Positions 2,644-60,128 of a stretch of DNA of 64,000 nt are shown piece after piece (within the stretch, counting starts at the first letter, position 1; each line of letters begins with the position of its first letter). Location: positions 1 through 64,000 of IMG/VR virus record IMGVR_UViG_3300037608_000032; one strand, given 5' to 3'. Position numbers and translations under genes: made by a program. The notes below the pieces were generated by a model that saw nothing but the letters and a program-made list of their open reading frames with translations, ran no database searches and had not been told where the DNA came from. The DNA comes from a virus.

Positions 2644-2677
2644 TGAGTTCTCCTGCCCCGTAGTAGCCTCTACCCGT

Positions 2678-3244
2678 CTACCCGAAAAGTGCAACCTGAC
2701 GAGGCGCGGGCTTCTTGCGCCAGTAGCCGAGATCCGTCAGCGCCTGGCGGTGCGCCTTAAGGTCTGCCACGTCGGCCTCGGTCAGGACCGCGAGCATGGC
2801 CTCACGCTGGCGCTTGTCTGCCACGGTGAACAGGCGCTCGATGGTCGCTTCAACGGACTGACGAGCCAGCGACGACCCGACGGACTCGTGAGACCCGAAC
2901 CCCTGGCAAGAGATAGTCACGAGCACCTTCTCGTCAGACGTGCCTTCGTGACCCCGTTTCTTGAACGACCGACGGTAGGTCTGCTGCACGGCCAGGGCTT
3001 GCCACCCGAGCCAGTTCGACAGAAGCTTCTCGGGGTTGCGGACTTCCGAGAACCGCTGAAACTTCGGGAACTGCTCTACGATCCGGGCGATGAAGTCCGA
3101 CCTGGCGTCCTCTCGGTCCGCCTCGTTCTCCATCTTGGCGAAGAACTTGTAAGCGAACCGGTCGATCTGCTTCTGGTGCGACAAGACGAAAGCCCATGCG
3201 TCGGCATGGTCGGGGGTGAGCTTGAGGGGGATCGATGGGGTCAT
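2678..3244 (-). CDS. ECF-type sigma-factor-like protein (region 2 present, region 4 truncated, C-terminal clamp-binding motif)
   Basis: QKQIDRFAYKFF..EADREDARSDFIARIVEQFPKF..LLSNWLGWQA..YRR matches the ECF sigma2 pattern; DKRQREAML resembles the start of region 4 with no HTH after it; ends QVALFG. Confidence 0.65.
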   Translation of the reverse strand: MTPSIPLKLTPDHADAWAFVLSHQKQIDRFAYKFFAKMENEADREDARSDFIARIVEQFPKFQRFSEVRNPEKLLSNWLGWQALAVQQTYRRSFKKRGHEGTSDEKVLVTISCQGFGSHESVGSSLARQSVEATIERLFTVADKRQREAMLAVLTEADVADLKAHRQALTDLGYWRKKPAPRQVALFG

Positions 3245-3702
3245 GCGAACCTCGGAGCAGGTTGGGCGGGGCGGGGGAAGATGTCGATGTCGGGCGGGCA
3301 CCCGTGGATGTCGGTCCAGAGTCTCGTCACGAAGCCCCGGACAACGCCGGAGACGTAGTGCCCGTCCAGCAGGAACCAGATGGCCGCCGACACGTTCCGG
3401 TCTTCGGCGTGGGCCTCGTAGAAGGCCCTGATAGTTAGGTTCAGGTGCGACCAGTTACCGGCCCATCGCCGGAGCTGGTGCGCGACGTTGACCGAGCACC
3501 CTTCGCCACCATGGAGCGCCGTGGTGAGCGCCTCGAACCGGACCTGAAGCGGCTCCCAGGGGAGCGCGCGCAGAGGGGCGAGCTCCAGGTGGAGTGCTAC
3601 CACCTCGGCGATGTCGAGGATCTCGGGCGGCGCGATTGACGCGGGGTGCGTAGGCCGTCGGCGGTTTCGGGGGTCGATCAAGGCTGGGCTCCTTCGGGGC
3701 AA
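3241..3702 (-). CDS. hypothetical protein
   Basis: Fills gap; ATGA overlap with the sigma-like gene; start uncertain. Confidence 0.6.
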   Translation of the reverse strand: MPRRSPALIDPRNRRRPTHPASIAPPEILDIAEVVALHLELAPLRALPWEPLQVRFEALTTALHGGEGCSVNVAHQLRRWAGNWSHLNLTIRAFYEAHAEDRNVSAAIWFLLDGHYVSGVVRGFVTRLWTDIHGCPPDIDIFPRPAQPAPRFA

Positions 3703-3764
3703 CTACACCCGACGAAGAGCCCCTAACCGGTAGCTGGTTAGGGGCAAGTGGAATCCGGTTACTT

Positions 3765-4895
3765 TCAGCGAGCTCGAAGGGATTCCTGCACCTTCCTGGC
3801 GATGTCCGACTGGAACCCGCCGATCTGGTTGGCGACTTCGAGCACCCGATCGTTACCGTCTGCCATGGCCCGGACTTCTCGGACCATCTGCGAGAGGGCG
3901 TTGTTGGCTTCGGCCAACTTCTGGACGTTGGCCAGCCCGGCGGCAGGGACGTTGCTCATCAGCTCGACAGCGGCGTCAAGCACCTTGAGGGCGTCCGCAA
4001 GCGCCGGGGCAACTGCCTTGCACACAAGAGCGTGAACGGCGGGGCGCTCTTCCGGCTTCTGCCAGAGGGCGTCGGTCAGCACCAGCAGGTCGTCGGTCGT
4101 CGCGAAGTCCCTGCCTGCCAGCGCGGCCATAGCCTGCACCAGCTTCGCGAGCTTGCAGAGCCGACGGTCGGAGACGTAGATCCCGAGCTCCGTCGCGATG
4201 GCGTCCTGGAGGTCCAGGAGCGCATCTTCGACGGTCTCGGGGATCGTGACCATGGAGACCGCTTCGCGAGCCGTCTCAAGGTCAGCATGGGTCAAGGTGA
4301 CCGACACGACGGGGCGGCCATGGGACCGAAGGAGCGCCTTCTTGGCGTCCCGGTCCTTGATGGGGTTAACCCACCGGCGCAACATGAACCGGTCATAGAG
4401 GGCATCCAGGGTGTTGTCGGCGGGGAGTTCGTTGCTGGCCCCGATGACGATCTCGAGGGGGCAAGTCTGGCGCGTGGTCCCGTTGTCGAAGGCCCGCTCG
4501 TTCAGGAGGGTCAACAGGGCATTCAGGATCGGCGACCCTGCCTTGAAGATCTCGTCCAAGAAGGCCACCTGAGCGGTGGGGAGGTAGCCCTCTGTCTTCC
4601 GCTCGTAGCGGTCTTCCTGGAGGCCCGTGATCGAGTAGGGCCCGAACAGCTCTTCGGGCATGGTAAATGCGGTCAGCAGGCGGTCGAAGGTCTTGGACCC
4701 GAGCGCACCTGAGACGGCGTTGGTGAGGGCACTCTTGCCCGTTCCTGGGAGCCCGAGAAGGAGGACGTGCTCGCGGGCCAGGAGAGCAACGCAGAGGACC
4801 GTGGCTTCGGCCTGGCGCTCGAAGAAGTTCTTCGAGATGTCGGCTCGAAGGTTGGCGACTTTGACGAGGGCTGCGGTCTGGGCGGGGGTGAACAT
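3765..4895 (-). CDS. MoxR/RavA-family AAA+ ATPase
   Basis: GLPGTGKS Walker A, PEELFGP, FLDEIFKA Walker B, LLNER, GASNELP, ALYDRF. Confidence 0.92.
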   Translation of the reverse strand: MFTPAQTAALVKVANLRADISKNFFERQAEATVLCVALLAREHVLLLGLPGTGKSALTNAVSGALGSKTFDRLLTAFTMPEELFGPYSITGLQEDRYERKTEGYLPTAQVAFLDEIFKAGSPILNALLTLLNERAFDNGTTRQTCPLEIVIGASNELPADNTLDALYDRFMLRRWVNPIKDRDAKKALLRSHGRPVVSVTLTHADLETAREAVSMVTIPETVEDALLDLQDAIATELGIYVSDRRLCKLAKLVQAMAALAGRDFATTDDLLVLTDALWQKPEERPAVHALVCKAVAPALADALKVLDAAVELMSNVPAAGLANVQKLAEANNALSQMVREVRAMADGNDRVLEVANQIGGFQSDIARKVQESLRAR

Positions 4896-4920
4896 CGGGG
4901 CTCCTTGCTGGGCGGGCGGG

Positions 4921-4978
4921 TCAAGAAGCAACTGCTCTTGATGTCATAAGTATAACTTGAATCACGTTAGACTGTCAA
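4921..4978 (-). promoter_or_regulatory. early sigma70-type promoter with operator and 5' hairpin
   Basis: TTGACA-18-TATACT; TAAC-gtgattcaa-GTTA; TCAAGAGC-AGTT-GCTTCTTGA hairpin. Confidence 0.85.
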
Positions 4979-5207
4979 CGGGTATCCAAGAAGATTCTCG
5001 CACCTGTAGCGATTTATTTTCATCGACCGGGAGCACCTCCGACACCGGGAAGGCCGTCCCAGCGTACCCAGGACGAAGCGCCTGCGAGTCGAGGAACACG
5101 CTGTAGACCTCGGGCTCGCGGTAGTCGGGCGGGGCCATGCGGACGTAGTTGATCGAGCCGGGCTGGCCCTTGGCTTGAACTCGGGCGCCGGGGAGAAGAT
5201 GAGACAC
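4962..5207 (-). CDS. hypothetical protein (81 aa)
   Basis: AGGAGG RBS before GTG. Confidence 0.7.
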   Translation of the reverse strand: MSHLLPGARVQAKGQPGSINYVRMAPPDYREPEVYSVFLDSQALRPGYAGTAFPVSEVLPVDENKSLQVRESSWIPVDSLT

Positions 5208-5215
5208 AGGACCTC

Positions 5216-6772
5216 CTACCGTCTGACAGGAATGACCTTGGACGCGGCCTTTTCCGCATCTTCGGCCTTGTCGATGTCTATCGATTCATCGCAGAAGCTC
5301 CGCACCGCCGGGGAGATGGACCCGCCACCTACCGTCATTCCGAAGACCCGCAGGCCGAGGGCCGCCTTGGCGGCCTTGACCATGTCGAGCACCTTCGGCG
5401 ATGCGTCAGCGCACCCGTCAGTGATGAAAAGCAAGTCCGCGCGGGGCTGGCTCTCCAGATACTCCAGGCCCCAGAACAAGGGCGCGTTGAAGTCCGTCCC
5501 GCCCCGTGCGTGCCGGGTGCAGAGTTCAAGGGCCAGGTCTATGACCTTGCCCCAAGGCTTCGCGGTCGCTCCCTTCGGCGATGTCGAGGGGAGGGTCTCA
5601 ACCTTGCCGTTGGTCCGGGCAATCCAGGCGTCAGAGATCCCGTGGTTGAACATGACCACGGCGACTTCGCGCTTCTCTTTCTGCCCGAGCTGGAGGCACG
5701 CGAGAATCGCGGCCTTTGCCCAGGTCTCGCCAGCGCCTTTCATGCTGCCCGACTCGTCAGCGAGGATGCAGATCGGGCCCTTGCCCTGCGGGGTCTTACC
5801 TTCGACCTTGTACTGGGGGAGGGACCTTTCAGCGAGGCCCTTCATGACGAGCACCTTCAGCGCCGGGTTGCCGAGCAATGCGAGCTGAGAGGGAAGCACG
5901 CGGGGAAGGTCGTTACCAAGCGTGACACCCGAGATGAGCCCGCAGGCGCGGGGGTCCTTGCGGGCCTCGGTGCGCTCGGCAAGGCGAACGAGCTTCCCGG
6001 CCTTGCGAAGGACCGCGCGAAGGTTCGGGTTGCGGAGCAAAGTCTGGGCAAGCTCCAACCGCCTGGAGTCCTTCTGCTCATGCGTCGGAGGCGCATAGGC
6101 GCTTCCAGGTGCGAGCGACTCCATGGCCTCGCGGGCTTCCGAGACCTGCTTCGATGCCCTGTCACAAGCGCCACGGAGAGCAGCTCGTAGCTGCTGACCG
6201 GCCTTGCCGAGTTGGTCAGAACGGCGCTGGCCTTGACCGTCGCCTTCTTCGTTGCCATCGCCGGGGGTGGGCTGGCCCTCACCAGCACCGGAGCCCTGGC
6301 CCGGCTGCTGGGCTTGCTGTTCGGCTTCCTGGTCCACCGACTTGAGAAGTTCGGGGAGCCTTCCGGCGATGGCGGAAAGAACCTCTTGCGCTGCCATCGC
6401 CGAGAAGTCGGGATCGCCCTTGACAGCCTCACGAAGAGACGACCACTCCGGCAGCTCGTCGGCGATGGCGTGCGCGGACGGTGCCCAGCCCTTCGCGTCA
6501 GCGACCTTCTCGGGGTCGTTGTACAACCGGGCGAAGGTCTCAGCTCCGAAGGTCTCGGAGTCGGTCTTGACCGCCTGCATGGCGGCCTCGCGCTCTTCCA
6601 CGGTCGCCAGTTTCCGCATGGTGGGGCGATGGTGCTCGCGCACCGCCTCCGCCACATGGGAGACCTGCGAGGCCATCGCCGGGAGCCGAGCGTCGAAGAG
6701 GAACCGCTCCCACCTGGACGGGGTGTAGGCCAGGTCGGTGGAAGCCTGAAAATGAAAGGCGGGGGCGCTCAC
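5216..6772 (-). CDS. VWA-domain protein (ViaA-like partner of MoxR ATPase)
   Basis: MIDAS motifs DESGSM, GGTDF, FITDG; GNDLPRVLPSQL; KGPICI. Confidence 0.9.
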   Translation of the reverse strand: MSAPAFHFQASTDLAYTPSRWERFLFDARLPAMASQVSHVAEAVREHHRPTMRKLATVEEREAAMQAVKTDSETFGAETFARLYNDPEKVADAKGWAPSAHAIADELPEWSSLREAVKGDPDFSAMAAQEVLSAIAGRLPELLKSVDQEAEQQAQQPGQGSGAGEGQPTPGDGNEEGDGQGQRRSDQLGKAGQQLRAALRGACDRASKQVSEAREAMESLAPGSAYAPPTHEQKDSRRLELAQTLLRNPNLRAVLRKAGKLVRLAERTEARKDPRACGLISGVTLGNDLPRVLPSQLALLGNPALKVLVMKGLAERSLPQYKVEGKTPQGKGPICILADESGSMKGAGETWAKAAILACLQLGQKEKREVAVVMFNHGISDAWIARTNGKVETLPSTSPKGATAKPWGKVIDLALELCTRHARGGTDFNAPLFWGLEYLESQPRADLLFITDGCADASPKVLDMVKAAKAALGLRVFGMTVGGGSISPAVRSFCDESIDIDKAEDAEKAASKVIPVRR

Positions 6773-7647
6773 TTCGACACCGCCAGGAGGCGCATGGCCT
6801 CGTCCTGGCACTCGGTGACCTTGGCTCGGAGGTCCTGCAACGAGACCTCGAGGGTCTTCTCGTAGAGGTCCGCGAGCCCGAGGAGGGTCGCGAGCTGGCC
6901 CAGGACGTTGGCCTGGGAGTCCGTGCGGATCTTTCTCGAAGTCGTCCGCCAGTCTTCGAGCTGCTTCTCGACATCGAGGAGCTGACCGAGGACGTGGTCT
7001 TGGACGCCAGCCCCGACGCCTTCGCGGCTATCCCCGTCGTTCTCCACCATGCAGAGGTGGAACTTGCACCCGCCCAACTGGCCCACGATCCTCTTGAGGC
7101 GCTTCACGATGTCCAGCGAGGCCAGCGGGGCGAAGTAGATCCCGCCCTGGCGACGGAGGGAGATAGCCGACGCGGCTTCGAGCTGAGGCACGAGCACCGA
7201 GGGACGAAGGAACCTGTGATCGAGGTACTTCAGGAAGTCGTCGGCCGACTTGATGAAGCCCTGGCCTACCTCGCTCGGGTACGCGTTGACCCACTCCCTG
7301 CTGACCGTGTCGTAGCACAGGGTCTCGGTCTGGCCCCACGCTACCTCACGAGACCCCTCCCGGCGATGCTGGAGGATACCGACGTACACCCTACCGCCGT
7401 CGATGGCCGTGACTTCGGCCTTGTAGCGGTCGTTGTTCCCGCGACCGGTAGCCCAATTCCCAGCGGCCTTGCGGATGGCCGACACGGGGTCGATGTCGGG
7501 GACCGAGATATCCGTGAGACCTTCGGACGCGAGCACGTCTCGAAGGTGCTCTGGCGTGACCTGGCTGGCATCAAGGTCCCACCAACAGAAGGTCCCCATG
7601 CGGGGGTCGATGGAGGTGACGTCGGGGGAGGTGGAAGTGAAGGGCAT
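6769..7647 (-). CDS. hypothetical protein of the type found beside phage/ICE MoxR-VWA pairs
   Basis: CAGGAG RBS; GTFCWWDL, LRRQGGIYFAP, C-terminal coiled coil; coupled to the VWA gene. Confidence 0.75.
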   Translation of the reverse strand: MPFTSTSPDVTSIDPRMGTFCWWDLDASQVTPEHLRDVLASEGLTDISVPDIDPVSAIRKAAGNWATGRGNNDRYKAEVTAIDGGRVYVGILQHRREGSREVAWGQTETLCYDTVSREWVNAYPSEVGQGFIKSADDFLKYLDHRFLRPSVLVPQLEAASAISLRRQGGIYFAPLASLDIVKRLKRIVGQLGGCKFHLCMVENDGDSREGVGAGVQDHVLGQLLDVEKQLEDWRTTSRKIRTDSQANVLGQLATLLGLADLYEKTLEVSLQDLRAKVTECQDEAMRLLAVSK

Positions 7648-7685
7648 GATGACTCCTGATAGGGGAAGGTGGTAGCAGGTGAGAG

Positions 7686-7925
7686 CTACTTGGTGACGAC
7701 CGTGCAACGGACGGTCTTGAAGGTGCCCTTGCCAGCCCCGCAGAAGACCTCGGTGCCGGGCTCGACATCGACGACGGCGTCGAGGACTTCGTCTCCCCGA
7801 ACACGGGGGATCGAGAGGAACCGAGCAGAGTCGCCAGAGCCGATGCGAGCCCACCAATTCGGCTTGCCATTGGCGTGGAATCCAGTGTTGCTCATGCGGG
7901 AGGTAGTGACGAGGTGGCTGGACAT
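7686..7925 (-). CDS. hypothetical protein (79 aa)
   Basis: AAGGAG RBS; first gene after promoter. Confidence 0.75.
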   Translation of the reverse strand: MSSHLVTTSRMSNTGFHANGKPNWWARIGSGDSARFLSIPRVRGDEVLDAVVDVEPGTEVFCGAGKGTFKTVRCTVVTK

Positions 7926-7950
7926 TTTAGGCTCCTTCGGGCTGGGGTTT

Positions 7951-8009
7951 CATGAAGAGCAACCGCTTTTCATGCTCTAACAGTAACACGATTCAGGTTA
8001 GCCTGTCAC
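7951..8009 (-). promoter_or_regulatory. early promoter with operator and 5' hairpin
   Basis: GTGACA-18-TACTGT; TAAC-ctgaatcgt-GTTA; CATGAAAAGC-GGTT-GCTCTTCATG hairpin. Confidence 0.75.
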
Positions 8010-9684
8010 TAGTTATCTGCACCTGTTCGCACTTTTCTTTCACGACCCTCTTTTTTCTCGCCTTCGGAGGTTCGGAGCACCAGACCAACCTCGCGACGCA
8101 CGCCATGCCCTGCTTGTCCACCCGTGGGCCTGGCCGGCGCACGTACCGACCGGCGCTATGGATGCTCGGGTCTGCATGGCCTCCGACTACGCCGTGGGCG
8201 TGGAGCGCGTCCAGGACCACGCGGTCAAGGGACGCGAGCATCCGCTGGACGTGAGGATCGGCGTAGAAGGCGCGTGGGTCCCACCTTCCTTGACGGAGCT
8301 TCACGACGACCTGCACGCCCGTTCCTGACGTCCTGACCATGGCCATCGTACCCGACAAGACCGGGTGGTTTACCAGGATGGCCTGGACTTCTTGGGCAGC
8401 TTCTGCAAGGTGCTTCCACTCGGGCATGGTCTCGATATCGTCGATGTCAACGCCGACCCATTCCGTGTAGACGGGCACGAAGCCGGTAGGCTGAAGGATG
8501 TTCATGCTCTCACGACCGGACGAAAACTCGCGGACTCCGGTGAACCCGTGCAGGTCCATGGAGACGTACAGGTCGGGAAGAACGGCTTTCGGACGGCAGA
8601 AAAACATCATCGTGTTCGTGGCCGCCAAGGCACCGTAGTAGACCTTCTCGTTCTTGGCGCGGCCGTCGGCATAGTGGAGAAGGTCCGTCAACGAGGTAGC
8701 AGCGGAAAAAGCCCGGTGGAACCCACGTCTTACAGACTCGTTCTCGCCACCGTAGTGCTTGCCCATCGTGAACCCGTACCCTTGGGGGCGGACTACATAG
8801 TCAGGACTGGAGATGTCCAAGGGGTCATCGTAGAAGGCCAGTCCTGACGGCTTGCCGAGTACCATCGGGGCCGGCCCGGGGTCCCCAGCTTCAAGGGAGC
8901 GGTCAACGAGAAAGAGCGCATTCGACGGGGTAGAAACAGGCACGTCCCAATAAGACCCCCTGTGGGGTAGACCGGGGGTAGCGATGCCCCCTGGGTCTCC
9001 TGACTCACAGAGTCTTAGACAGGCGGGACTGGCCTTGACTGAGACGACGGGCTGGAAGAGGACGGCAAGGTCTTCAAGGACCTTGGCCTTGCCGATGATG
9101 GTCTCACACGAGAAGCAGAAGACGTACCCGGTCTCTTGGTTGACCACGGCGTTCGGGGAGTGGCCTTCGTGGTTCGGGCATCGGATGAAGACCTTCTGGC
9201 CCTTGCGATGTCCAGGGACCTGGACTGCGGGGCCGTAGCACCGGTGGTCCTGGACTGGGGGAGCGTGCCCTTGACCTGCGAGGGCTTCGAGCACCTGCTC
9301 GGCAATGGCATGCGCTTCGGGGGTGACTCGGTAGTGGGTGCCCCTACCTTGCCCGGGGGCGAGGTCTCGAACCGGGTAGCCGAGTCGGGCAGCTTCAGGG
9401 GTGGTGACTGGCTCGGCTCCGAGTAGAGCGTAGACGTCGGGGAAGACCTGGCGGGCGATGTCGCGGGAGATGGTCCCGTGCGGGACGAAATAGCCAGCGC
9501 ATCGCTCGGAGATGTAGGAGCCATCGGACGCGAGAAAGGCGCGGACTACGTGGTCGTGCAGGATGACGATGGCAGCGCGGAGTCGGGTGGGCGTGAAGCC
9601 CAGCAGTTCTTCAACGAGGAGGTCAGCCCAGGTGGGGGCCTCGACTCGGGCGAGCGCAGCGCCGGTCAACGCCGATCCTTGCAT
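7993..9684 (-). CDS. AEP/RepB-like primase protein with CHC2 zinc finger
   Basis: CPNH...CFSC zinc finger; GVDIDD (DxD), RTSGTGVQ (motif II variant), ADPSIHSAGRYVRRPG. Confidence 0.6.
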   Translation of the reverse strand: MQGSALTGAALARVEAPTWADLLVEELLGFTPTRLRAAIVILHDHVVRAFLASDGSYISERCAGYFVPHGTISRDIARQVFPDVYALLGAEPVTTPEAARLGYPVRDLAPGQGRGTHYRVTPEAHAIAEQVLEALAGQGHAPPVQDHRCYGPAVQVPGHRKGQKVFIRCPNHEGHSPNAVVNQETGYVFCFSCETIIGKAKVLEDLAVLFQPVVSVKASPACLRLCESGDPGGIATPGLPHRGSYWDVPVSTPSNALFLVDRSLEAGDPGPAPMVLGKPSGLAFYDDPLDISSPDYVVRPQGYGFTMGKHYGGENESVRRGFHRAFSAATSLTDLLHYADGRAKNEKVYYGALAATNTMMFFCRPKAVLPDLYVSMDLHGFTGVREFSSGRESMNILQPTGFVPVYTEWVGVDIDDIETMPEWKHLAEAAQEVQAILVNHPVLSGTMAMVRTSGTGVQVVVKLRQGRWDPRAFYADPHVQRMLASLDRVVLDALHAHGVVGGHADPSIHSAGRYVRRPGPRVDKQGMACVARLVWCSEPPKARKKRVVKEKCEQVQITSDRLT

Positions 9685-9967
9685 GAAAAGGATGGACGGG
9701 TAAGCCGGGTGCGGTTAGAATCGGGGTGGTTGACCATTGCGACTGGTTGACTCGGGTGATCAGGTGGCCCGTCTTTCTACCGGTTGAGTCCCGATAGAAG
9801 TGAGTGCAGCCTGGACGGTTCTGGTGTACACCCCTCCGAGGCCCGGCGTCAAGGAGGGGCTACACCTTTTCGAGCGAGGCGAGGGAGATGACGGGGGAGC
9901 TACTACATCGGGAGCTGGCTATAGTGGCTTGCACCTGTAGAGACCTTTCCGGCGATGTAGGTACCAG

Positions 9968-10276: not shown

Positions 10277-10510
10277 CAGGTGGACGCGCGGGGCCTCGGT
10301 GGCTACCATCTTCATGCCACCCGTCTGGCGATGCGTCGTCCAGGAGTCCGCGCGACTCCCAGGCCAGAGACTGACGCCACCCGAAGCCGTAGCATCGGTG
10401 GTGCTCGGGATACCGAGCGAGTCTGGCCGACAATTGCTGGGTTACGGTCCGGTCTCCTGCAAAGGGGGCCGGGCTCGTTCTTGAGGCTACTATGGGGCGG
10501 AGGTGAGCCC

Positions 10511-12335: not shown

Positions 12336-12460
12336 CTTCGAAGTCCTGGCTACTACCTGATCGAACCCCAGCAAGGAGACCAGCCACGAAGCACACCGGG
12401 GGAGCGTGTCTACCTCAACTCAGCGCTCTCCCGAACTTCGTGCGGTACTCGGAGGACAGC

Positions 12461-13975
12461 ATGTTTTCAGGCCACGTCAAGACGATCATCGACCGCTACC
12501 CGATGGCAGCGGGCCTGCCAGACAACGGCAAGTTCATCGCCATCTCGAACAGCGACGTCGGCAAGCTGGCGTGCGAGCGCCGGTTTCTGCTCTCGCAGAT
12601 CGAGGCCCTCAAGGCCCCGTCCACGGGCCCGATGGACCTGGGGACCGCGTGGCATGAGGTCTCGGAAGATTGCTTCAGGTGGTGGGCACTTCAAGACACC
12701 GGCTACCCTGACGAGGGGCTGGATCGGTGCCCGTTCTGCCGTGGGTCTGGGGTGGTAGACGAGGCCACGGGGATCTGGCAGGGAAAGGAGCTTTCATGTG
12801 CGAGGTGTTTGCGCTGCAACGGCTCCGGGAAGTCGGCCTTGTCCATGGCGATGGTTCCCTACCGTGCCAAGGTCGAGACCATGGAGATCTCTTCCGGCGA
12901 TGCGGACCTTGTAGAGGAGACCTTGCGCCGGATGCTCCAGGGCTACCTCAAGCGGTGGGAGTCGGGGCCGCTGGACTCCATCAAGATCCTCGGTGTCGAG
13001 ATGTCCTTGTCGAGGGCCATCGTCAACCCGAAGACCGGGCTGGTCTTCAAGCCAGAAGTCACGCTCGAACAGAACGAGGACGGCTTCTGGGTCCTGACCG
13101 GGCCGGGATCGACTGCCAAGGCAGACCGAGGGGAAGGGTCGGTCCGTCGGGTGCGCTGGCCCTGGTATCAGGTGGGCTACTTGGACGTGCTCGGGTGCGA
13201 CCGCGTGACGAAGCTCGGGTGGGTCATTGACATCAAGGGGTCTGGCCAGCCGAGTCGGTATCCAAAGGGGATGGGCGTGGACCCGCAGCTTCCGGGGTAC
13301 TGCTGGCTTCTGGAGGGGCACCTGCAGGATCTCGGGTGCTCCGGTATCGCCGGGTTCATGTACGACGTCAGCAACACGAAGTACCAGCCGGACCCGCACG
13401 AACTCAAGTGGATCCCGCCGAAGATGGACGACCTCAAGGCGATGGTCGAAGCCAAGGGCATCAAGGTCACGGGCCGCAAGTCTGAGGACTACTGCCAGGC
13501 GCTCGGTATCGTACCGGGACACGGCGGGTTCTCGGTGGCCATGAATTCCGGCGTGCCTTCGTGGAGGTACGAATGGGCCATCAAGGCGGCTGGCGTGGAC
13601 CGGGCCCCCTACGAGGAGCACCTTCAGTACCTCGCTGAGACGGTGGACCCCGGGCTCTACTCGCGTCCGTGGATGAGGTACGGGGAGAGCCATCGCCAGA
13701 GGTACGGGCGCGAGATCTACGCCAAGGCGGTCAGGATGCACCTGCTCCGCAAGGCGGCGGCAGGGTGTGATGACGCCGAAGGGCTGGACGTGCTCTTCCC
13801 ACGGACGCCGGTTTGCACAGTGCCGGGAAGTGGGTGCGGGTATTCGGACCTCTGCGCGGCCGAAGACTGCCCTCGGACGGGCTACTACGTGACCCCGACC
13901 CAGCGGTGGGCGGAAGAATCCGACCGGCAGTCTGCCGACGGGGAGCAGCAACAACAGACTGAGCTTGGATGGTGA
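12461..13975 (+). CDS. PD-(D/E)XK exonuclease (RecB/AddB/Cas4-like)
   Basis: ISNS..CERRF, GTAWHE, GYLD..IDIKGS, PQLPGY, C-terminal Cys cluster; GGAGG RBS. Confidence 0.85.
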   Translation: MFSGHVKTIIDRYPMAAGLPDNGKFIAISNSDVGKLACERRFLLSQIEALKAPSTGPMDLGTAWHEVSEDCFRWWALQDTGYPDEGLDRCPFCRGSGVVDEATGIWQGKELSCARCLRCNGSGKSALSMAMVPYRAKVETMEISSGDADLVEETLRRMLQGYLKRWESGPLDSIKILGVEMSLSRAIVNPKTGLVFKPEVTLEQNEDGFWVLTGPGSTAKADRGEGSVRRVRWPWYQVGYLDVLGCDRVTKLGWVIDIKGSGQPSRYPKGMGVDPQLPGYCWLLEGHLQDLGCSGIAGFMYDVSNTKYQPDPHELKWIPPKMDDLKAMVEAKGIKVTGRKSEDYCQALGIVPGHGGFSVAMNSGVPSWRYEWAIKAAGVDRAPYEEHLQYLAETVDPGLYSRPWMRYGESHRQRYGREIYAKAVRMHLLRKAAAGCDDAEGLDVLFPRTPVCTVPGSGCGYSDLCAAEDCPRTGYYVTPTQRWAEESDRQSADGEQQQQTELGW

Positions 13976-19224: not shown

Positions 19225-19294
19225 CCCTGACGACGCCGAAGAGACAGGCTACTACCTCGCAGGCGTTACCATTTTCCATCACCAGGAGTTTCTC

Positions 19295-20269: not shown

Positions 20270-20308
20270 GAAGGGCGCGCCTAATGGTGGGTGCGCCCTT
20301 CATTTTTG
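20270..20308 (+). terminator. intrinsic terminator
   Basis: GAAGGGCGCGCC...GGTGCGCCCTTC stem then ATTTTT. Confidence 0.8.
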
Positions 20309-20375
20309 GGGCGTTTCCGGTTTTGCGGAGAAAAAGCAGGATGCGGCTACTGCTGCGAGAAAGGGAGCAACCACG

Positions 20376-22966: not shown

Positions 22967-23648
22967 CCCTCGGTACCTCGACAAGGCCACGGACGCCGAA
23001 TGGCCGACGCGCATGCCACCTTCCGTCTTGGGGGACTGGCAGGCCTTGACGAAGTGGCTGGCAGGGGTGTCTCCCGAGTACCGGGCCCGCGTCGTGTCCC
23101 TCTGCATCGAGCTGGATCTGGAGGCCGGGCGGGTGGCCTACCGGGACGCCATGGCGGCCGGAGAGCGGTTCAAGGCCGACCTGATCAAGCGCAACGGGCC
23201 GGCCGTGGTGGCCAGCGCCAAGGTCCTGTCGGCCTCGGTCGGTCGGGCCATGGACGCGCTGACGACGTGGCGGGCGGTGGGCTTGGCGGCGGTCCGGGCG
23301 ACGGAACAGGCCCGGCAAGACCTGGAGGTCTTCAGGTGGGTCCGGGCGTCGTTCGTGAGAGTTGCTCGCACATGGAGCGATGTATCTGCGGCGAAGGGGG
23401 AGGGGATGACGAGGGACGACACGCCTGCGGGTGTGGCCAAGGCCCGTCGGGAGTTCGAGGACGAACAGCGCCGGAAGCGCGGGGCTGGCGCGAAGGATGA
23501 CGATGTGCTCGTGAGCACAGCGCCGGTGAAGGACGCCTACATTGCCGAAGAGACGGCCAACCAGGCGAAGCGAGACCGGGCAGACGCCGAAGACCGGGCG
23601 AAGGCTACTACGAAGTCCACGCCAAAGGGCGGACTGTTCGGAGGTTGA
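22959..23648 (+). CDS. hypothetical protein
   Basis: Helical ORF in operon; ends GGLFGG. Confidence 0.7.
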   Translation: MPDPRYLDKATDAEWPTRMPPSVLGDWQALTKWLAGVSPEYRARVVSLCIELDLEAGRVAYRDAMAAGERFKADLIKRNGPAVVASAKVLSASVGRAMDALTTWRAVGLAAVRATEQARQDLEVFRWVRASFVRVARTWSDVSAAKGEGMTRDDTPAGVAKARREFEDEQRRKRGAGAKDDDVLVSTAPVKDAYIAEETANQAKRDRADAEDRAKATTKSTPKGGLFGG

Positions 23649-25643: not shown

Positions 25644-25681
25644 GGGCTACTACGTCAGCGAACCTTCACCAAGGGAAGCTG

Positions 25682-27257: not shown

Positions 27258-27296
27258 GGGCTACTACTTCGGTGAACCCAACCCCAGGAGTGGAGC

Positions 27297-34123: not shown

Positions 34124-34152
34124 GTTGTCTTCCTTGCTGGGGTGGGGTGGAG

Positions 34153-34212
34153 GCATGAACAACAACCGCTGTTCATGCACTAACTATAACTCGATTCACG
34201 TTAGACTGTCAA
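34153..34212 (-). promoter_or_regulatory. early sigma70-type promoter with operator and 5' hairpin
   Basis: TTGACA-18-TATAGT; TAAC-gtgaatcga-GTTA; GCATGAACAGC-GGTT-GTTGTTCATGC hairpin. Confidence 0.85.
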
Positions 34213-35185: not shown

Positions 35186-35187
35186 GG

Positions 35188-35970: not shown

Positions 35971-35995
35971 TGAAACTCCTTCTGGGTTCGGGCAT

Positions 35996-36043: not shown

Positions 36044-36120
36044 CGCGTGCAGGAACCAGCACCTATTTCAACATCGCCGGAGTGGTCAGGGCTACTACGA
36101 GGCACACCCTTGGAGGCACG

Positions 36121-41200: not shown

Positions 41201-41335
41201 CGGCTACTATAGGTGGAAGTTTCTGCGTTTCTCGCGGCGGGACAACCGCCAGTAACGACAAGACTCGCAGTTCAGCAATGCGCACAGGCTATCGGAACAG
41301 ACCGCCCTTGGCGCGAATGGTCTGCCGAAGAAGCA

Positions 41336-47275: not shown

Positions 47276-47309
47276 CCAGTCTACCTCAGCCCTTCACGGG
47301 GCCTGTTTG

Positions 47310-47344
47310 AGGGCACCTCGGAAACGGGGTGCCCTTTTTCTTTT
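47310..47344 (+). terminator. intrinsic terminator
   Basis: GGGCACCTCG-GAAA-CGGGGTGCCC then T tract. Confidence 0.9.
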
Positions 47345-49103: not shown

Positions 49104-49184
49104 CGTTGCTCCGTTCGTTAACGTAGTAGCTACTACGGAATGACGGCCGGGACGGACCCGGCCAACAACCCGAAGGAGTCCAAC

Positions 49185-51100: not shown

Positions 51101-51118
51101 TCTCACGCTGGATTGACG

Positions 51119-51155
51119 AGGGCCGTACTTGGCAACAGGTGCGGCCCTTTTTCTT
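51119..51155 (+). terminator. intrinsic terminator
   Basis: AGGGCCGTAC..GTGCGGCCCT then T tract. Confidence 0.85.
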
Positions 51156-51188
51156 GAGTCGGGGTAGACTGCCCCCAAGAGGTGCCTC

Positions 51189-51797
51189 ATGTTCGCTCTC
51201 ACCAACATCCTGGTCAACTGGCGTAGGTCCACCGCCCTGGTGCTCGACTCCCGCACGCCAACGGGGACCATGGCCGCGTCACGGGCCCCTGTTCGTACTA
51301 GTTGCATTCAGGTGCAGCTAACTGGTACGCCTACCGGGACCGTAACCGTGGCGGGGTTGGTCGGGGGCGTGGCCGACACCGAGGTCTTGACGTGGGCTGG
51401 AGTCGCGGGGGCACGGGTCACGGTGAAGGAGTTCTCCACGGTGGCGTTCACCTCGTCACTCACCGGCGCTGTCAAGGTCGAAGCGTCGGCCGTCGGCATG
51501 GACGGGACCCCGCAGGCCGGGACCTACGCCGTCAGGTCAAGTTGGCCCGTGCAACTCGCAGCGCCGGGGTCTGGCCAGCGATGGCCTGGGCAGGTGCCTG
51601 GACATGAGCTGACTTCGGACCGGGTATGTCGGGTGCCCTACGAGGAGACGTGGGCTCCGCGTGAGGGAGACGTTGTGGACGTCGTGCAACCCGCCACAGG
51701 AGAGACCTTCCAGGTCTTCGGGCGGCCTACTGTGCAGGTCGTTGGGATGGTCCAAGACCACTGGCAGGTCAAGCTGACCCAGCAACAGGGGGCCTAA
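51189..51797 (+). CDS. virion protein, head-closure-like C-terminus
   Basis: Beta-rich; PREGDVV..FQV..HWQVKL; position among neck genes. Confidence 0.6.
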   Translation: MFALTNILVNWRRSTALVLDSRTPTGTMAASRAPVRTSCIQVQLTGTPTGTVTVAGLVGGVADTEVLTWAGVAGARVTVKEFSTVAFTSSLTGAVKVEASAVGMDGTPQAGTYAVRSSWPVQLAAPGSGQRWPGQVPGHELTSDRVCRVPYEETWAPREGDVVDVVQPATGETFQVFGRPTVQVVGMVQDHWQVKLTQQQGA

Positions 51798-51855
51798 CCG
51801 CATCGGAGTTAGGACCTTACAGGCGCTTGACGTTTCAGCATGAGGCAGGGAAGAT
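51794..51855 (+). promoter_or_regulatory. late promoter with upstream TAAC-N9-GTTA site
   Basis: CTAACCGCATCGGAGTTAG then TTGACG-17-GAAGAT. Confidence 0.7.
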
Positions 51856-51884
51856 CGGGTAGTACTTTCAACCCCGAGGTTCTC

Positions 51885-53537: not shown

Positions 53538-53553
53538 TCTCTGACCTGTTCCC

Positions 53554-53591
53554 AGCCCCGGTCGGGTACGCCCTGGCCGGGGCTTTTCTTT
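53554..53591 (+). terminator. intrinsic terminator
   Basis: AGCCCCGGTCGGG..CCTGGCCGGGGCT then T tract. Confidence 0.85.
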
Positions 53592-53636
53592 GCGAGCTAC
53601 TACTTCGAGGAATCTTCAACCTCGTAGGAGTAGTCC

Positions 53637-56615
53637 ATGCCCCTTCCCGTAGATCAGGCTCACGATGTCCTGGTCATCATCCCCACCGTCGCCGTGCCCC
53701 GCGTGCTTGTGCCGGCATTCCAGAAGCTCTGCACGACCCTGGACGGGCTACGGGTCCACGTCGTCCTGGCGGCCAACCCAAAGGACTCGGAAGCCGCTGG
53801 GGTAGCCCTTGATGAGTGCATCCGGATCTGGCGGTCCTACGACCCCGCTGAGTGCCACCTCACGACCTACAACCACGGCGCGCTCGCAGGCTTTGGGGGA
53901 GCTATCAACCTCGGCCTGCGGGCAGTCCTTGGGGACCTGTCCAACGCCTGCACCGTGACCAAGACCTCCGGGGAATGCGGCGTGTTCTGGGGTGTGCCCC
54001 GCCTGACGGTCGTCTACAACGACGACCTTGTCGCAACGCCGGGATGGATCCAGGGCCTGCTACGAGCCCTCGACTCCGAGACGGTGTGCGAGTGGTCGGA
54101 GCTTCCGACCCAGGACCCCGGGACCAAGGGCTACACCCGCCCGATCCGTCGGATGGCCGACTACGGCAAAGTGGGGCTCGTAGGGCCCGCCTCGAACAAC
54201 GCGGCGGGAATCCAGGGCCAATGCCAGGCCACGCTGAAGCAGATTCAGGACAAGGGCTACGACCACTTCGCCGGGGAATGGGCGGAACAGAACGAGGGCA
54301 ACGTCTTGACCGCTACCTTCCTGTCGGGCTTCTGCCTCGGTATCACGCGGGAGTGCATGGAGGCCCTGACCGTCTACTCCGGCGATGGCGAGTTCTCCTG
54401 GCTCTTCGACGAACGGTTCAAGGTCGCTGGCTACGAGGACAACGACCTGTGCATGCGTGCGGACCTTGCAGGGTTCCGTGCGGTAGTCGCTGGGGATGTC
54501 TTCGTGCCTCACATCGGACACCAGACTTTCGACGCCAGCTTCCCGGAGATGCGGCGTGGATTGGCAAATCGCCTCACCTACTACGACAAGTGGCGCGAGT
54601 GGGTCCAGGACCATGGACGGCGCACCGTGGCGGCCTACCGAGTGCGGTTCGACGTACCAGGGGACCTGGGGCTCTTTCGGGAGTCCCTCCGGCGATGTGC
54701 CTCCCTGGTTGATGGCGTGGCGGTGCTGCTGACCGGCAACCCGGCGGCGGTGCTCGACTCGGCAGAGTTCAAGTCGGCGGGCATGACCGCAGATAGTGAC
54801 TTGCACCTGTGCCAACTTTGTGCAGCCAAGCCGGGGAACGCTCACGCCTATGTCTACGCCTGGGTTTCGCAGGTGCTCTACAAGACGGCGGGCTCGCGGT
54901 TCAGCCAGCCGAAGGTCGTCGAAGACGTCTTCGTAAAGGCCTCGGACTGGACGGCCCCGATGAACGAGCGAGACGAGCGCAACGTCCTCCTGGCGATGGC
55001 CGAGTCTATCAAGGCGGACTGGGTGCTCTCCATCGATCACGATGAGGTCCTCGAACCCCGCCTCACCCGTGCTCATGTCGAGCGCATGATGCTTCACCCT
55101 GACCCCTTGGTCCAGTGCTGGGACCTGGCCTTCGTCAACCACTGGGAGAATCCCCGCATGTACCGCGTGGACCGGCCTTGGGGAGACGGCGGAACGTGGA
55201 CGGGCGGGATGCGAGGATACCGGTTCTATCGGGTCAACCACGCGGCCCCTCGTCGGATTCTCGCAGGGGGTCATGCCGGCTTGCACTGCGGCAACACCCC
55301 CGGAGTGGACCTGATGGCCAAGCGGGTTTCTGGGGTGCGTTTCAGGCACTTCGGCTACATGAATTCCCGAGATCGATTCCGGAAAGAACGACGGTACAAC
55401 GTCCAGGACCCGACCCCTGACCCGCTCTTGGTCGGTGGCACGTCCTACGCCCACATCACGCGGGACGAAGCCATGGTGCTCTCCGCGTTCGTGCCCGAAA
55501 ACGGGATCGGGCTCCACATGCTCATGCACGAGGGGGAGTCTGCGGACGACCTCGGACGGCTGTTGGATGGTCTCTACGCGGTAATGGACCGGGTGGTGCT
55601 CGTGTGGACGGGGAAGTGGCTGAACGGAGACAAGGAGTGGCTCGTTCACCCCGGCGATGTCAACATCGGGGACCCGGCGATTCTCGAAGACGCGGGATAC
55701 TGGCCGATGTCGGGCCCCTCGGAAGCCGTCGCCAAGATGGCCGCGCACTTCGGGTGCGAGTGGCTTCATCATCCGTTGGCAGACGACCTCGGAGCGGCTC
55801 GCAACGCGGGGCTGGACGCTCTCCAGGGCACGCCTGGCATGGGTTGGGCCGTGTTCTTCGACCCTGACGAGCACGTTCCCCCACAGGCTCCCGTGGTCCT
55901 GCGACGGATGGCGGAAGCCGGGGACTGCTGGGGATGGATGTTCCGGTTCCGGAACACCTACCAGGACGGCACGGCCAATCAGTCAGAATCGGTTCGGATG
56001 TCCAGGCTGGATCCTGACCAGCGCATGCGCGTTCACGGGCGCGTGCATGAGGGCTTCTCGCGTGCGGTGCGCCAGCTCGTAGACGACGGGTTCGGCTCAG
56101 TGCTTCGGGTCTGCCCGTTCATCGTCGCCAACACCGGGCTCTCAAAGGACCCGGAAGAGATCCAGGCGAAGTTCGACCGTTACCGGCGACTCACCGAGCT
56201 TCAGCTTCAAGAAGACCCGAAGGACCCTGGCGCATGGGTCACGCTCGGGTTGTACTGGGCAAACGAGGGATGTCATGACACGGCTGCGGAATGCTTCTCG
56301 CGCGGGGTGCTGTGCGCCGACAAGGAATACCTGCCCTTCCAGGAGCTTGGGCTTCACCTGCTCCGCCAGGCCCGAGACATGTTCGCGGAAGCCGTGGAGC
56401 GGATGTCGGGGCATCAGATGCAGGCCCCCTGGCAGGCAGTGGTGGACTTCGCAGACAAGGCGGCCCCACCCATGAAAATCATGGGCACCGTCGGGGAATT
56501 CTGGCACCGGGCATGGTCGGACGGAGAGGCCATGAAGACCTTGCCTGGATCCGAGCGACGTACCAGGATGGTCGATGGCGTGGAGTATCCAGACCTGACC
56601 GACCCCCGCGATTAG
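53637..56615 (+). CDS. multi-domain glycosyltransferase (three GT2-like domains + TPR)
   Basis: VYNDD..GFCL..FDERF..YEDNDLC; WVLSIDHDE..HFGY; ARNAGL..FFDPDE..GRVHE; TPR-like DPKDPGAWVTLG..AAECF. Confidence 0.88.
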   Translation: MPLPVDQAHDVLVIIPTVAVPRVLVPAFQKLCTTLDGLRVHVVLAANPKDSEAAGVALDECIRIWRSYDPAECHLTTYNHGALAGFGGAINLGLRAVLGDLSNACTVTKTSGECGVFWGVPRLTVVYNDDLVATPGWIQGLLRALDSETVCEWSELPTQDPGTKGYTRPIRRMADYGKVGLVGPASNNAAGIQGQCQATLKQIQDKGYDHFAGEWAEQNEGNVLTATFLSGFCLGITRECMEALTVYSGDGEFSWLFDERFKVAGYEDNDLCMRADLAGFRAVVAGDVFVPHIGHQTFDASFPEMRRGLANRLTYYDKWREWVQDHGRRTVAAYRVRFDVPGDLGLFRESLRRCASLVDGVAVLLTGNPAAVLDSAEFKSAGMTADSDLHLCQLCAAKPGNAHAYVYAWVSQVLYKTAGSRFSQPKVVEDVFVKASDWTAPMNERDERNVLLAMAESIKADWVLSIDHDEVLEPRLTRAHVERMMLHPDPLVQCWDLAFVNHWENPRMYRVDRPWGDGGTWTGGMRGYRFYRVNHAAPRRILAGGHAGLHCGNTPGVDLMAKRVSGVRFRHFGYMNSRDRFRKERRYNVQDPTPDPLLVGGTSYAHITRDEAMVLSAFVPENGIGLHMLMHEGESADDLGRLLDGLYAVMDRVVLVWTGKWLNGDKEWLVHPGDVNIGDPAILEDAGYWPMSGPSEAVAKMAAHFGCEWLHHPLADDLGAARNAGLDALQGTPGMGWAVFFDPDEHVPPQAPVVLRRMAEAGDCWGWMFRFRNTYQDGTANQSESVRMSRLDPDQRMRVHGRVHEGFSRAVRQLVDDGFGSVLRVCPFIVANTGLSKDPEEIQAKFDRYRRLTELQLQEDPKDPGAWVTLGLYWANEGCHDTAAECFSRGVLCADKEYLPFQELGLHLLRQARDMFAEAVERMSGHQMQAPWQAVVDFADKAAPPMKIMGTVGEFWHRAWSDGEAMKTLPGSERRTRMVDGVEYPDLTDPRD

Positions 56616-58508: not shown

Positions 58509-58592
58509 GTGCTTGCACCTGTAGCCGGGTAGTGATACCGTCGGAGGTAGACGCCCGAGAGGCGCATTCCACCCCCACACGCAGGAATCACT

Positions 58593-59147
58593 ATGCCTCT
58601 CAATGTTCCGAATTTCACGACCTCCAAGTTCTCCTTCGGCCCTGGCGTGCTGTACCTCGGTGCGGCCGGCACGACTCCCACCGTTGACGTCGGTGGCATC
58701 ACCGAAGACGGCATCAAGGTCGCCATGATGTCCAAGAAAAAGGACATTCACCAGGGCAATCCGAAGCTCGTCTGCTACACCTTCAACCAGGAACAGGGGA
58801 TGGAGATCGAGCTCTCGGGTATCGAGTGGAACTTCGACTCCCTGGCCTACGCTCTCGGAGCCGGCAACACGACCGTGTCGGGCACCGAAGAGACCTTCGC
58901 CTTCGGCGGCGACCCCCTGTGCCAGACCGTGGCAATCAGGATCGTTCACCAGATGGCCACGTCGGGCCACACGATGCTCGCCTACGTCTGGCAGGCCGTC
59001 AGCAACGGCGACCTGGAGCTGACCTTCGGCCATGACGAGCACAAGTTCCCGATGAAGTGGAAGGCGCAGCGCTGTACCACAAACTGGGCCGGTGCCACGC
59101 TCCCCTACGATGAGCAGCTCGGACTGCTGGTCGAGCAGATCGCGTAG
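58593..59147 (+). CDS. major tail tube protein
   Basis: FGPGVLY..DVGGITEDG, LELTF; biased codons; followed by terminator. Confidence 0.85.
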   Translation: MPLNVPNFTTSKFSFGPGVLYLGAAGTTPTVDVGGITEDGIKVAMMSKKKDIHQGNPKLVCYTFNQEQGMEIELSGIEWNFDSLAYALGAGNTTVSGTEETFAFGGDPLCQTVAIRIVHQMATSGHTMLAYVWQAVSNGDLELTFGHDEHKFPMKWKAQRCTTNWAGATLPYDEQLGLLVEQIA

Positions 59148-59164
59148 CTCGTCCTTTCCCGACC

Positions 59165-59204
59165 AAGGGCCTTGGGGTATCATGCCTACAGGCCCTTTTC
59201 TTTT
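59165..59204 (+). terminator. intrinsic terminator
   Basis: AGGGCCT..AGGCCCT then TTTCTTTT. Confidence 0.75.
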
Positions 59205-59211
59205 CTGGAGA

Positions 59212-60006
59212 ATGAACATGGACTGGACTGAAAAGTGGGTAGACGCCCTGACGAAAGACGGCGTGAACGTACGAGACCTTCGCGGGGTGCTGCCCCACAA
59301 GACCGATACAGAGTTCATGCGGCGGGACCCGGTGAAACTCCACGGGATGACTCTTCATCACGCGGCGATCCGGGGAAACACCGAGAAAGACCTCGTCAGT
59401 ATCGCCCGATACCATGTCGGGCCCAACCACATCGCCGGGGGAGGCTGTCCGGGGCTCTGCTACACCGGGGCGGTGCTCGGAGATGGGACCTTCTGCCTGG
59501 CCTGGAACTTGAACGTGACGACGTGGTCTCAGGGAGACGGGAATTCCAAGCACCTTGGGATCCTGGTGCTCGGAGACTTCTACTCCCCGTCGAACCCTAC
59601 CGGCTTCGACCCTACCCCTCCCCAGTGGGATAGTTGCTTGCAGGTGTGGCGTACTTCTGCGCAGGTCTTCGGGTGGTCGAAGAACCAGCTCTTCGGGCAC
59701 TTCGACTTCGGGAAGCCGGCGTGCCCAGGTGACACGCTTCGGAACCTTGTCATGGACATCCGGGAAGGAATCGAGCCTGAAAAGATGGTTCTCCTACCCG
59801 ACCTCGGGATGGACCTCCCGTCAACGGCACGGCACCAGAAGGCCCTGGAGATGCTCGGCTTCTCACCCGGCGCTGTAGACGGTATCTGGGGACCGATGTC
59901 CAAGGCGGCGCTGGCGCGGTTCCAGGCGTCCGCCGGGCTTCCCGTGGACGGCGTGTGGGGAGCGAACACCCAGCGGGCCATCGACGCGGCTCTGAAGAAT
60001 CTGTGA
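59212..60006 (+). CDS. endolysin: amidase-2 + peptidoglycan-binding domain
   Basis: TLHHA, IARYH, FGHFDF..ACPG; DGIWGP..FQ..GLPVDGVWG. Confidence 0.9.
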   Translation: MNMDWTEKWVDALTKDGVNVRDLRGVLPHKTDTEFMRRDPVKLHGMTLHHAAIRGNTEKDLVSIARYHVGPNHIAGGGCPGLCYTGAVLGDGTFCLAWNLNVTTWSQGDGNSKHLGILVLGDFYSPSNPTGFDPTPPQWDSCLQVWRTSAQVFGWSKNQLFGHFDFGKPACPGDTLRNLVMDIREGIEPEKMVLLPDLGMDLPSTARHQKALEMLGFSPGAVDGIWGPMSKAALARFQASAGLPVDGVWGANTQRAIDAALKNL

Positions 60007-60128
60007 CCACGGGCCCCGTCACCGTCGAAGCTGACCAGCCTCCGCTACCCCGGCGGCGGGTGCTCGTGGTCTTGCGGGTGGGCAGGGCCGTAGAGACGGG
60101 CTACTACCGAGGCAGGAGGCTAACCACC

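Follow-up and report, generated by a model that had tools for sequence, protein, structure and literature searches.

In phiEco32, early transcription relies on sigma70 promoters, whereas that of the middle and late genes depends on gp36, a sigma factor of the phage, and on one conserved box centred at -11.5 (PMC12276001). The prediction of such phage promoter classes from sequence has a precedent in phage 7-11 (PMC4331800). The late promoters of T4 have a tightly kept 8-base-pair box at -10 and no -35 element, and they are read by gp55, a sigma-2-type protein with a C-terminal clamp-binding tail, along with gp33 and the gp45 clamp (PMC2988020, PMC7892883). Here, we describe a nine-base word, RGCTACTAY, that recurs ahead of genes in the IMG/VR virus record IMGVR_UViG_3300037608_000032 (75,042 bases), the first 64 kb of which constitute the window analysed; the Pfam families encoded in this window indicate a tailed phage. 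We hold, with about as much belief as doubt, that the word defines a -10-type, -35-less class of promoters, mainly for replication and DNA-modification genes, read by a divergent sigma factor encoded on the minus strand at 2678-3244. As such, it would most likely represent a viral gene switch of a known kind whose promoter sequence is new.

An earlier note on this DNA had drawn attention to recurrent copies of the word on the coding strand ahead of genes, and all the copies that it listed lie at the positions given there, including a variant at 20345. RGCTACTAY has 15 exact matches in the window against 0.26 expected from 100 dinucleotide-preserving shuffles, none of which reaches 15 (maximum 2), bearing out the suspected enrichment; bases 64001-75042 of the record hold no further copies. 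Thirteen of the 15 lie wholly within 110 nucleotides (nt) 5' of a start codon on the same strand, against 5.9% expected from the share of strand-specific positions in this zone (binomial P 1e-14), and, as a control, none of the four copies of the word read backwards falls in such a same-strand upstream zone. With the variant included, 13 of 16 sites are intergenic on our first gene map, on which 7.5% of the bases are intergenic, and 14 of 16 once one start is moved to ATG 19313, in keeping with the earlier description of the copies as mostly intergenic. Further, the most enriched of the intergenic 8-mers is GCTACTAC, which occurs 13 times in the genome, 11 of them within the 5.75 kb of oriented intergenic DNA. 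The gene starts used here come from our own rough gene caller, with four of them shifted by eye, and single distances are correspondingly uncertain.

The word tolerates little change. All nine perfect copies of GGCTACTAC are upstream of a same-strand start, as against 7 of the 22 sequences with one mismatch to it and 14 of the 216 with two, the last figure being background. Only three positions vary: the first is G or A, the final one C or T, and the eighth differs in a single copy; the TA is invariant, and the last base is C in 13 of the 15 exact copies and in 14 of 16 with the 20345 variant. Thus, the final T of a canonical sigma70 -10 box is indeed mostly missing, and a -35 box at 16-18 nt is likewise not seen: the position table of the 16 sites is flat in information content from -45 to -6, and none of the upstream k-mers, CGAAGA and GTAG included, is significant after multiple-testing correction, which agrees with the earlier finding of no shared -35. 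Promoters of extracytoplasmic function (ECF) sigma factors combine a conserved AAC-type -35 with a short CGT-type -10 at fixed spacing; here there is no common -35 and the box is a nine-base invariant word. In our model, the word would occupy the -10 region, with its G at about -14 and TACTAC at -12 to -7, and would have no -35 partner. At five of the 16 sites GAA stands 6 nt downstream of the word (rotation null P ~0.03), which is where the start would be expected if TACTAC spans -12 to -7, though this is suggestive only.

The copies that follow terminators or occupy divergent gaps place the word where transcription has to begin. Two of them follow strong intrinsic terminators on the plus strand. 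The first of these, a 13-pair stem and T run at 53554..53584, is followed 10 nt on by AGCTACTAC at 53595..53603 (+), itself 33 nt before ATG 53637 of a gene for a 992-amino-acid (aa) glycosyltransferase, while 43 nt past the stem of the other, a 14-pair stem and T run at 20270..20301, lies the variant GGCTACTGC at 20345..20353 (+), 22 nt before ATG 20376 of a helicase gene. Four more copies lie in three divergent gaps. These are AGCTACTAC at 9898..9906 (+), 61 nt before ATG 9968 in the gap 9670-9967; GGCTACTAC at 36090..36098 (+), 22 nt before ATG 36121 in the gap 35971-36120; and two copies arranged back to back, 49123-49131 (-) and 49128-49136 (+), which overlap as the 14-base palindrome GTAGTAGCTACTAC. 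This palindrome stands ahead of two starts, GTG 49191 of the plus-strand sugar epimerase gene at a distance of 54 nt and ATG 49103 (-) at 19 nt; the earlier note had rightly seen it as a two-strand site, and its bounds, given as 49122-49137, are in fact 49123..49136. At five of the six terminator and divergent-gap places a sigma70 promoter scan finds no other candidate.

Among the remaining sites, GGCTACTAC at 2660..2668 (-) is separated by 9 nt from the stop codon of the sigma-like gene before it and by 16 nt from ATG 2643, which opens a gene for a helix-turn-helix (HTH) protein followed by dnaN. On the plus strand, GGCTACTAT at 10485..10493 precedes by 17 nt GTG 10511, a start read from the sequence for a small Cys-rich open reading frame that overlaps the helicase start at 10707. 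GGCTACTAC recurs at 12348..12356 (+), 12 nt past the helicase stop and ahead of a nuclease gene whose start is uncertain (ATG 12461, 104 nt away); at 19247..19255 (+), between the primase-helicase stop, 22 nt back, and ATG 19313, 57 nt ahead; at 25645..25653 (+), 1 nt past a methylase stop and 28 nt before ATG 25682; at 27259..27267 (+), 1 nt past a stop and 29 nt before ATG 27297, behind which two methyltransferase genes follow; and at 60099..60107 (+), 21 nt before ATG 60129 of a gene between those of the amidase and the tape measure. Two GGCTACTAC copies fall within coding ends, one at 13880..13888 (+) in the 3' end of the nuclease gene, 80 nt before ATG 13969 (AAA_24 ATPase), and one at 23603..23611 (+) in the last 46 nt of the coding sequence 22959-23648, 39 nt before GTG 23651, with a C5 methylase gene next; our gene caller had put the start behind this latter copy at 23711. 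The earlier note had recognised the first of these as lying in a coding end, to which the second has to be added, both being in the last 46-96 nt of the upstream coding sequence. Finally, GGCTACTAT at 41202..41210 (+), also listed earlier, is present 1 nt past the terminase stop, but it has no same-strand gene behind it and faces convergent minus-strand genes. Overall, the distance from word to start codon ranges from 16 to 104 nt, with 11 of the 16 sites within 16-61 nt, such that the previously given span of 17-60 nt describes most sites but not the full range. At six sites just 16-22 nt, the Shine-Dalgarno sequence included, separate the two; this leaves no room for a further -10 box, so the word, if a promoter element, would be start-proximal.

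The genome also carries promoters of the ordinary kind. A consensus scan recovers two near-perfect sigma70 promoters on the minus strand with 35 bases in common: TTGACA-18-TATACT at 4949..4978, which heads an operon of a MoxR ATPase gene, gene 3681-3241 and the sigma-like gene 2678-3244, and TTGACA-18-TATAGT at 34183..34212, a second copy of the same canonical cassette. From a reading of the upstream regions there are five such TTGACA-N18-TAnnnT cassettes of about 90 bases each (926-1020, 4896-4990, 7926-8020, 34124-34222 and 35971-36065, all on the minus strand), preceding the minus-strand starts 925, 4895, 7925, 34123 and 35970. They are composed of the -35 box, a spacer with CTAAC, the -10 box, a leader hairpin around AGCRGTTGC and then CCCAGCAAGGAG before the start codon. 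Their -10 boxes (TATCTT, TATACT, TACTGT, TATAGT and TACTAT) all end in T, and RGCTACTAY is absent from all five. These are probably early promoters. The presence of five ordinary sigma70-type promoters indicates that the host reads ordinary promoters; hence RGCTACTAY, with its TA but mostly a final C and without a -35, sets apart a second class distinct from the canonical cassettes. As in a phage-sigma system of the phiEco32 gp36 type, the genome encodes a divergent sigma70-family protein and has a separate host-type early set, one member of which heads the sigma operon and is predicted to drive its expression.

The majority of the virion genes are preceded by boxes of another type, TAnAYT, which are sigma70-like but lack a good -35. 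Fourteen of the 40 TAnAYT hexamers are intergenic, and nine lie 7-54 nt before starts; they may make up a third, late class of promoters. Such boxes, often after GG or TGG, occur at 42135, 46254, 47358, 51165, 56684, 61057, 28790 and elsewhere, ahead of genes for the portal, the capsid, the tail and other products, two of the boxes coming after the terminators 47309-47336 and 51118-51149.

The strand-matched, intergenic and post-terminator placement, together with the unlikeness to the five canonical promoters, sustains the idea of a phage-specific promoter put forward in the earlier note, whereas its timing as 'middle/late' was drawn too broadly. Genes of replication, recombination or DNA modification account for ten of the 16 copies, when the small genes beside them and the pair of HTH and dnaN genes are counted in. 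As for the others, the copy at 36090 heads a block extending to a Mom-like gene and the large terminase, one precedes a tail-region gene, three stand before sugar-modifying genes or a divergent gene of unknown function, and that at 41202 is an orphan. With 10 of 16 copies at replication and modification genes and the virion genes having TAnAYT boxes, 'middle' fits better than 'late'. The sugar-related segment at 49191-56615, with a sugar epimerase/dehydratase, a GDSL hydrolase and the 992-aa double glycosyltransferase, is set within the virion block, each of its units behind a copy of the word, which raises the possibility that the virion or the host surface is glycosylated.

A comparable layout is also known from repressor sites. 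Repressors of the L5 type, from cluster A mycobacteriophages, bind more than 20 asymmetric 13-mers, which occur in promoters and in short gaps between genes and follow the direction of transcription (PMC9283540). The main rival to a promoter is therefore a stoperator-like site, at which a monomeric repressor would block both initiation and elongation. RGCTACTAY resembles the sites of the L5 gp71 type in its many asymmetric, oriented copies in short intergenic spaces (PMC9283540). Six copies lie 1-22 nt past an upstream same-strand gene with no terminator between, and a small HTH protein is encoded at 2326-2643. Yet the word has 9 bases rather than 13, and two of its copies come directly after strong terminators, where a roadblock would be pointless. 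It is also the sole promoter candidate in the three divergent gaps, and its absence from the five early-type promoters would let lytic promoters escape the repressor. Moreover, the Pfam scan of 66 frames from the 75-kb record turned up neither an integrase or recombinase family nor an immunity repressor that could be recognised, many genes having no match. We accordingly regard a stoperator as improbable.

The candidate reader of the word is a 188-aa protein, encoded at 2678..3244 (-) and ending in QVALFG. It has no Pfam match and no sequence match to any sigma factor in the PDB. Its structural model is confident for residues 11-90 (predicted local distance difference test, pLDDT, above 80), falling to 57 for residues 91-100, and its match to sigma-2 domains covers residues 10-103. 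When 48,161 chains were searched by a method independent of Foldseek, the nine best were all sigma factors (Z 8.6 to 7.3, root-mean-square deviation 2.3-3.7 Å over 76-89 aligned residues), a Z near 8 being middling for helical proteins. In Foldseek itself the best E-value was just 0.024; T4 gp55 is not among the fold matches listed, and a chain of the phiEco32 gp36 complex (9m7y_F) is found at rank 12 of the fold search with Z 6.9. A profile built from eight known homologues recovered 55 proteins among 1.84 billion representatives, of which 53 were scanned (leaving out the query itself and one match of 1,217 residues). Pfam Sigma70_r2 is matched by 27 of these 53, 14 of them above the cut-off, one relative also matches region 4, and two match the ECF model. 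Aligned with hhalign against 14 of the Sigma70_r2-positive relatives, the protein matches with a probability of 99.9% (E 2.5e-35) over 175 columns that include its C-terminal half. Because of the fold and this transitive sequence homology, it is a divergent ECF-type sigma factor, in line with the earlier note, which had called it sigma-like. At the helix that aligns with region 4.2 of its relatives, both this protein and an 88%-identical relative read DLGYWRKKPAPRQVALFG, which contains prolines, and the region 4.2 helix seems to have been replaced. Loss of the helix that reads the -35 would fit promoters that lack one. The tail is QVALFG here and QVSLFA in the 88% relative, and such a tail is found in only 3 of 61 relatives; we take it to resemble the bacterial clamp-binding pentapeptide.

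It is also conceivable, though we think it unlikely, that the word is a promoter read by something else: a host alternative sigma factor, the neighbouring HTH protein redirecting the host polymerase, or a phage polymerase that has escaped recognition. All the evidence of placement for a promoter applies to this reading in equal measure. The first six bases of the word, GGCTAC, resemble the GGGTAY -10 boxes of SigB/SigF-type sigma factors, but no GTTT-type -35 or other upstream element is held in common by the sites. The 105-aa HTH protein (2326..2643, -) is the first gene behind the copy at 2660-2668 and thus a rival candidate as reader. In the more distant locus L010, its homologue (3287-3652) lies 21 nt after the sigma homologue and is 52% identical, the sigma homologue being 39% identical, and the sigma and HTH genes thus form a conserved two-gene module; in a set of 5.8 billion proteins the HTH protein found no homologue but itself. 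Yet HTH dimers usually read palindromes, and this word is asymmetric and strictly oriented. As regards a polymerase, several large proteins of the phage have no family match, but the 66 frames scanned with Pfam, which are not all of its genes, include no polymerase family. A further point in favour of the sigma factor is that its gene adjoins the first copy of the word.

By analogy, the system would work most like that of phiEco32. Both are phages of about 75 kb with sigma70-type early promoters, a distant sigma homologue encoded by the phage itself and later promoters with one box near -10 (PMC12276001). They differ in the box itself, AATGTA in phiEco32 and RGCTACTAY here, and in that the sigma-4-like C-terminal domain of gp36 contacts the -35 region, whereas the matching helix here looks lost; nor does this phage have a detectable sequence relation to any phage record. 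In the cascade that we envisage, the host RNA polymerase with the host primary sigma would first transcribe the five leftward units from their TTGACA-N18-TAnnnT promoters, one of which would yield the phage ECF-type sigma (2678-3244). This sigma would then displace the host sigma on the core polymerase and direct it to the roughly 16 RGCTACTAY sites, turning on the clamp and HTH genes, those for replication, recombination and DNA modification, the terminase-ward block, and some sugar-modifying and tail genes. The observations of the earlier note are thus confirmed and its interpretation is partly supported, while we infer, from the above, both that transcription starts at the word and that this sigma factor reads it. 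If the cascade is correct, sequence alone reveals the temporal order of gene expression in a very divergent, uncultured phage from groundwater: five host-type early units come first, and about 16 phage-specific ones follow. The few known phage sigma systems would then gain a promoter word and a small sigma subfamily, both of them new and the latter with 55 representatives among 1.84 billion proteins, and orthogonal pairs of sigma factor and promoter are useful parts for synthetic biology.

Several points weigh against a promoter class read by this sigma factor. A search for related loci using the sigma-like protein, the terminase and the alignment found none in viral contigs or genome contigs, and three in metagenome contigs, L009, L010 and L011. 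In favour of the class, L009, a fragment of 1,450 bases that is 88% identical, keeps GTAGnGGCTACTACGGGGCAGGAGAA after the sigma gene, including the copy of the word at 2660..2668, beside an 8-base deletion; it is, however, the single testable relative, and at 88% identity an identical run of 21 bases is unremarkable. L010, with its sigma homologue and the same HTH neighbour, has no RGCTACTAY in 13,172 of its 18,763 bases, which may mean either that its sigma has a different specificity or that the link between sigma and word is wrong. L011 has no word of the RGCTACTAY type either. ECF sigma factors normally depend on a -35 box, and many of them regulate themselves, whereas no copy of the word precedes the sigma gene here. 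The downstream GAA signal is marginal, and an upstream GTA at -5 to -3 has a rotation null P of ~0.07 and is at three sites the TAG stop of the upstream gene. The copy at 41202 has no gene to serve, two copies are inside coding ends, and the distances depend on gene starts from our own caller. Further, the six copies that follow an upstream same-strand stop by 1-22 nt with no terminator fit stoperator sites equally well (PMC9283540).

The search of viral contigs with GGCTACTACNNNNNCGAAC returned at least 118 loci, with no relative among the matches listed; 109 of those listed have a single copy, and in the nine that have two or three these are apparently coding repeats. In the literature, the papers listed for the 9-mer are unrelated and have the word in primer-like sequence.

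A more elaborate version of the preferred reading brings in the phage's own clamp. The phage dnaN gene for the beta sliding clamp (1170..2252, -; Pfam) is the second gene behind the copy at 2660-2668 and lies two genes downstream of the sigma gene. It is possible, if doubtful, that we are looking at a replication-coupled switch like that of T4 built from unrelated parts, in which an ECF-type sigma without its -35-reading helix but with a putative clamp-binding tail would open the RGCTACTAY promoters together with the phage's own beta clamp. The sigma would be tethered by a phage beta clamp loaded on replicating DNA, and, with the first promoter driving the clamp gene itself, a feed-forward loop would result. 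The likeness to T4 is in the single tight -10-like box without a -35, the phage-encoded sliding clamp and, here, the QVALFG tail of the sigma factor with dnaN two genes away. In contrast to T4, the box is GC-rich and of unrelated sequence, the clamp is of the bacterial beta type and not gp45, no gene like that of gp33 is known, although no search aimed at one was made, and RGCTACTAY precedes replication genes and hence is not a purely late class. A T4 review states that no other natural instance of such transcription had been found (PMC2988020). Reported since then, MuC of phage Mu has clamp-binding motifs and uses the host beta clamp to activate late promoters (PMC12867686). It thus offers a parallel in pairing a transcription factor bearing such motifs with a bacterial beta clamp, but MuC is an activator working with sigma70 and not a sigma factor, and clamp binding here is only putative. 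If it holds, this version would represent a convergent second invention of clamp-activated, sigma-dependent transcription. A -35-less promoter and a sigma with a clamp-binding-like tail near dnaN would then be a testable case of replication-coupled transcription outside the T4 family and Mu.

Could the word act in RNA rather than DNA? As the leader GGCUACUAC it might be a processing site, a loading site for antitermination or a translational enhancer, and its orientation is always sense, ahead of a start codon. At one site only, the leader 53595-53636, pairing between the motif and the Shine-Dalgarno region is possible (CUACUAC...GUAGGAGUAG). However, RNA folding at the 16 sites gives no shared structure (z-scores from -2.3 to +0.9), with the word paired differently at each, and there is no Rfam family. 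The distance to the start codon varies over 16-104 nt, and unseen promoters further upstream would be required both for the copies that terminators precede and for the two back-to-back ones at 49123-49136. A role in RNA is therefore quite improbable.

Least probable by far is a DNA-level signal outside transcription, namely a site for replication, packaging, recombination or modification. The phage does encode several DNA methyltransferases and a Mom-like protein, and other frame-independent words are over-represented in its genome. Yet on either strand RGCTACTAY is oriented as the genes are and stands only on their 5' side, whereas the frame-independent word CGGCGATG is scattered through coding DNA on both strands. 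There are 62 copies of CGGCGATG in the record, for instance at 2505, 9950, 23779, 36072 and 57997, and 39 copies of CCGGCGATG against 2.15 expected. These two occur in all reading frames, sense and antisense, and also between genes, usually after a pyrimidine run, and CGGCGATG looks like a frame-independent DNA-level word. A further pair, GCACCTGTT/AACAGGTGC, has 12 copies against 0.34 expected, at 9930, 26410, 27570, 42110, 48390, 58512 and other positions, often as TTGCAGGYG in plus-strand intergenic gaps.

The sequencing runs containing this stretch are labelled groundwater metagenome, and the phage DNA has a G+C content of 63%. By their Pfam families, a leftward block at 1170-9684 (-) encodes the beta sliding clamp, a MoxR-type ATPase and a primase-like protein. 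It is followed by a rightward block at 9968-31511 (+) with helicases, the nuclease, the primase-helicase and several DNA methyltransferases, then by a second leftward block at 31489-35970 (-). From 36121 another rightward block (+) has the Mom-like, terminase, portal and capsid genes, sugar-modifying enzymes, and tail, amidase and tape-measure genes. In the last 11 kb of the record the frames tested have no informative Pfam match, and by their position they are most likely tail genes. There are no tRNA genes and no Rfam matches. Megablast of 21 kb against phage records gave no match, tblastn of the terminase and the primase-helicase reached at best only 21-27% identity, and tblastn of the sigma-like protein found nothing in the same records; by sequence, then, the phage appears to have no close relative among them. 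A minus-strand gene at 41614-42072, for a 152-aa protein with a hydrophobic stretch, lies antisense between the terminase and portal genes. The portal gene probably does not begin with the long plus-strand frame at 41732 but more likely at 42164. Positions 1-99 and 74898-74996 of the record are 99 identical bases, part of a 15/60-base periodic repeat inside minus-strand frames (G000; L012 for the far end). The assembly may have broken within a repeat, the genome being circular or terminally redundant, and, given these shared ends, the record may be more complete than its estimate of 68%.

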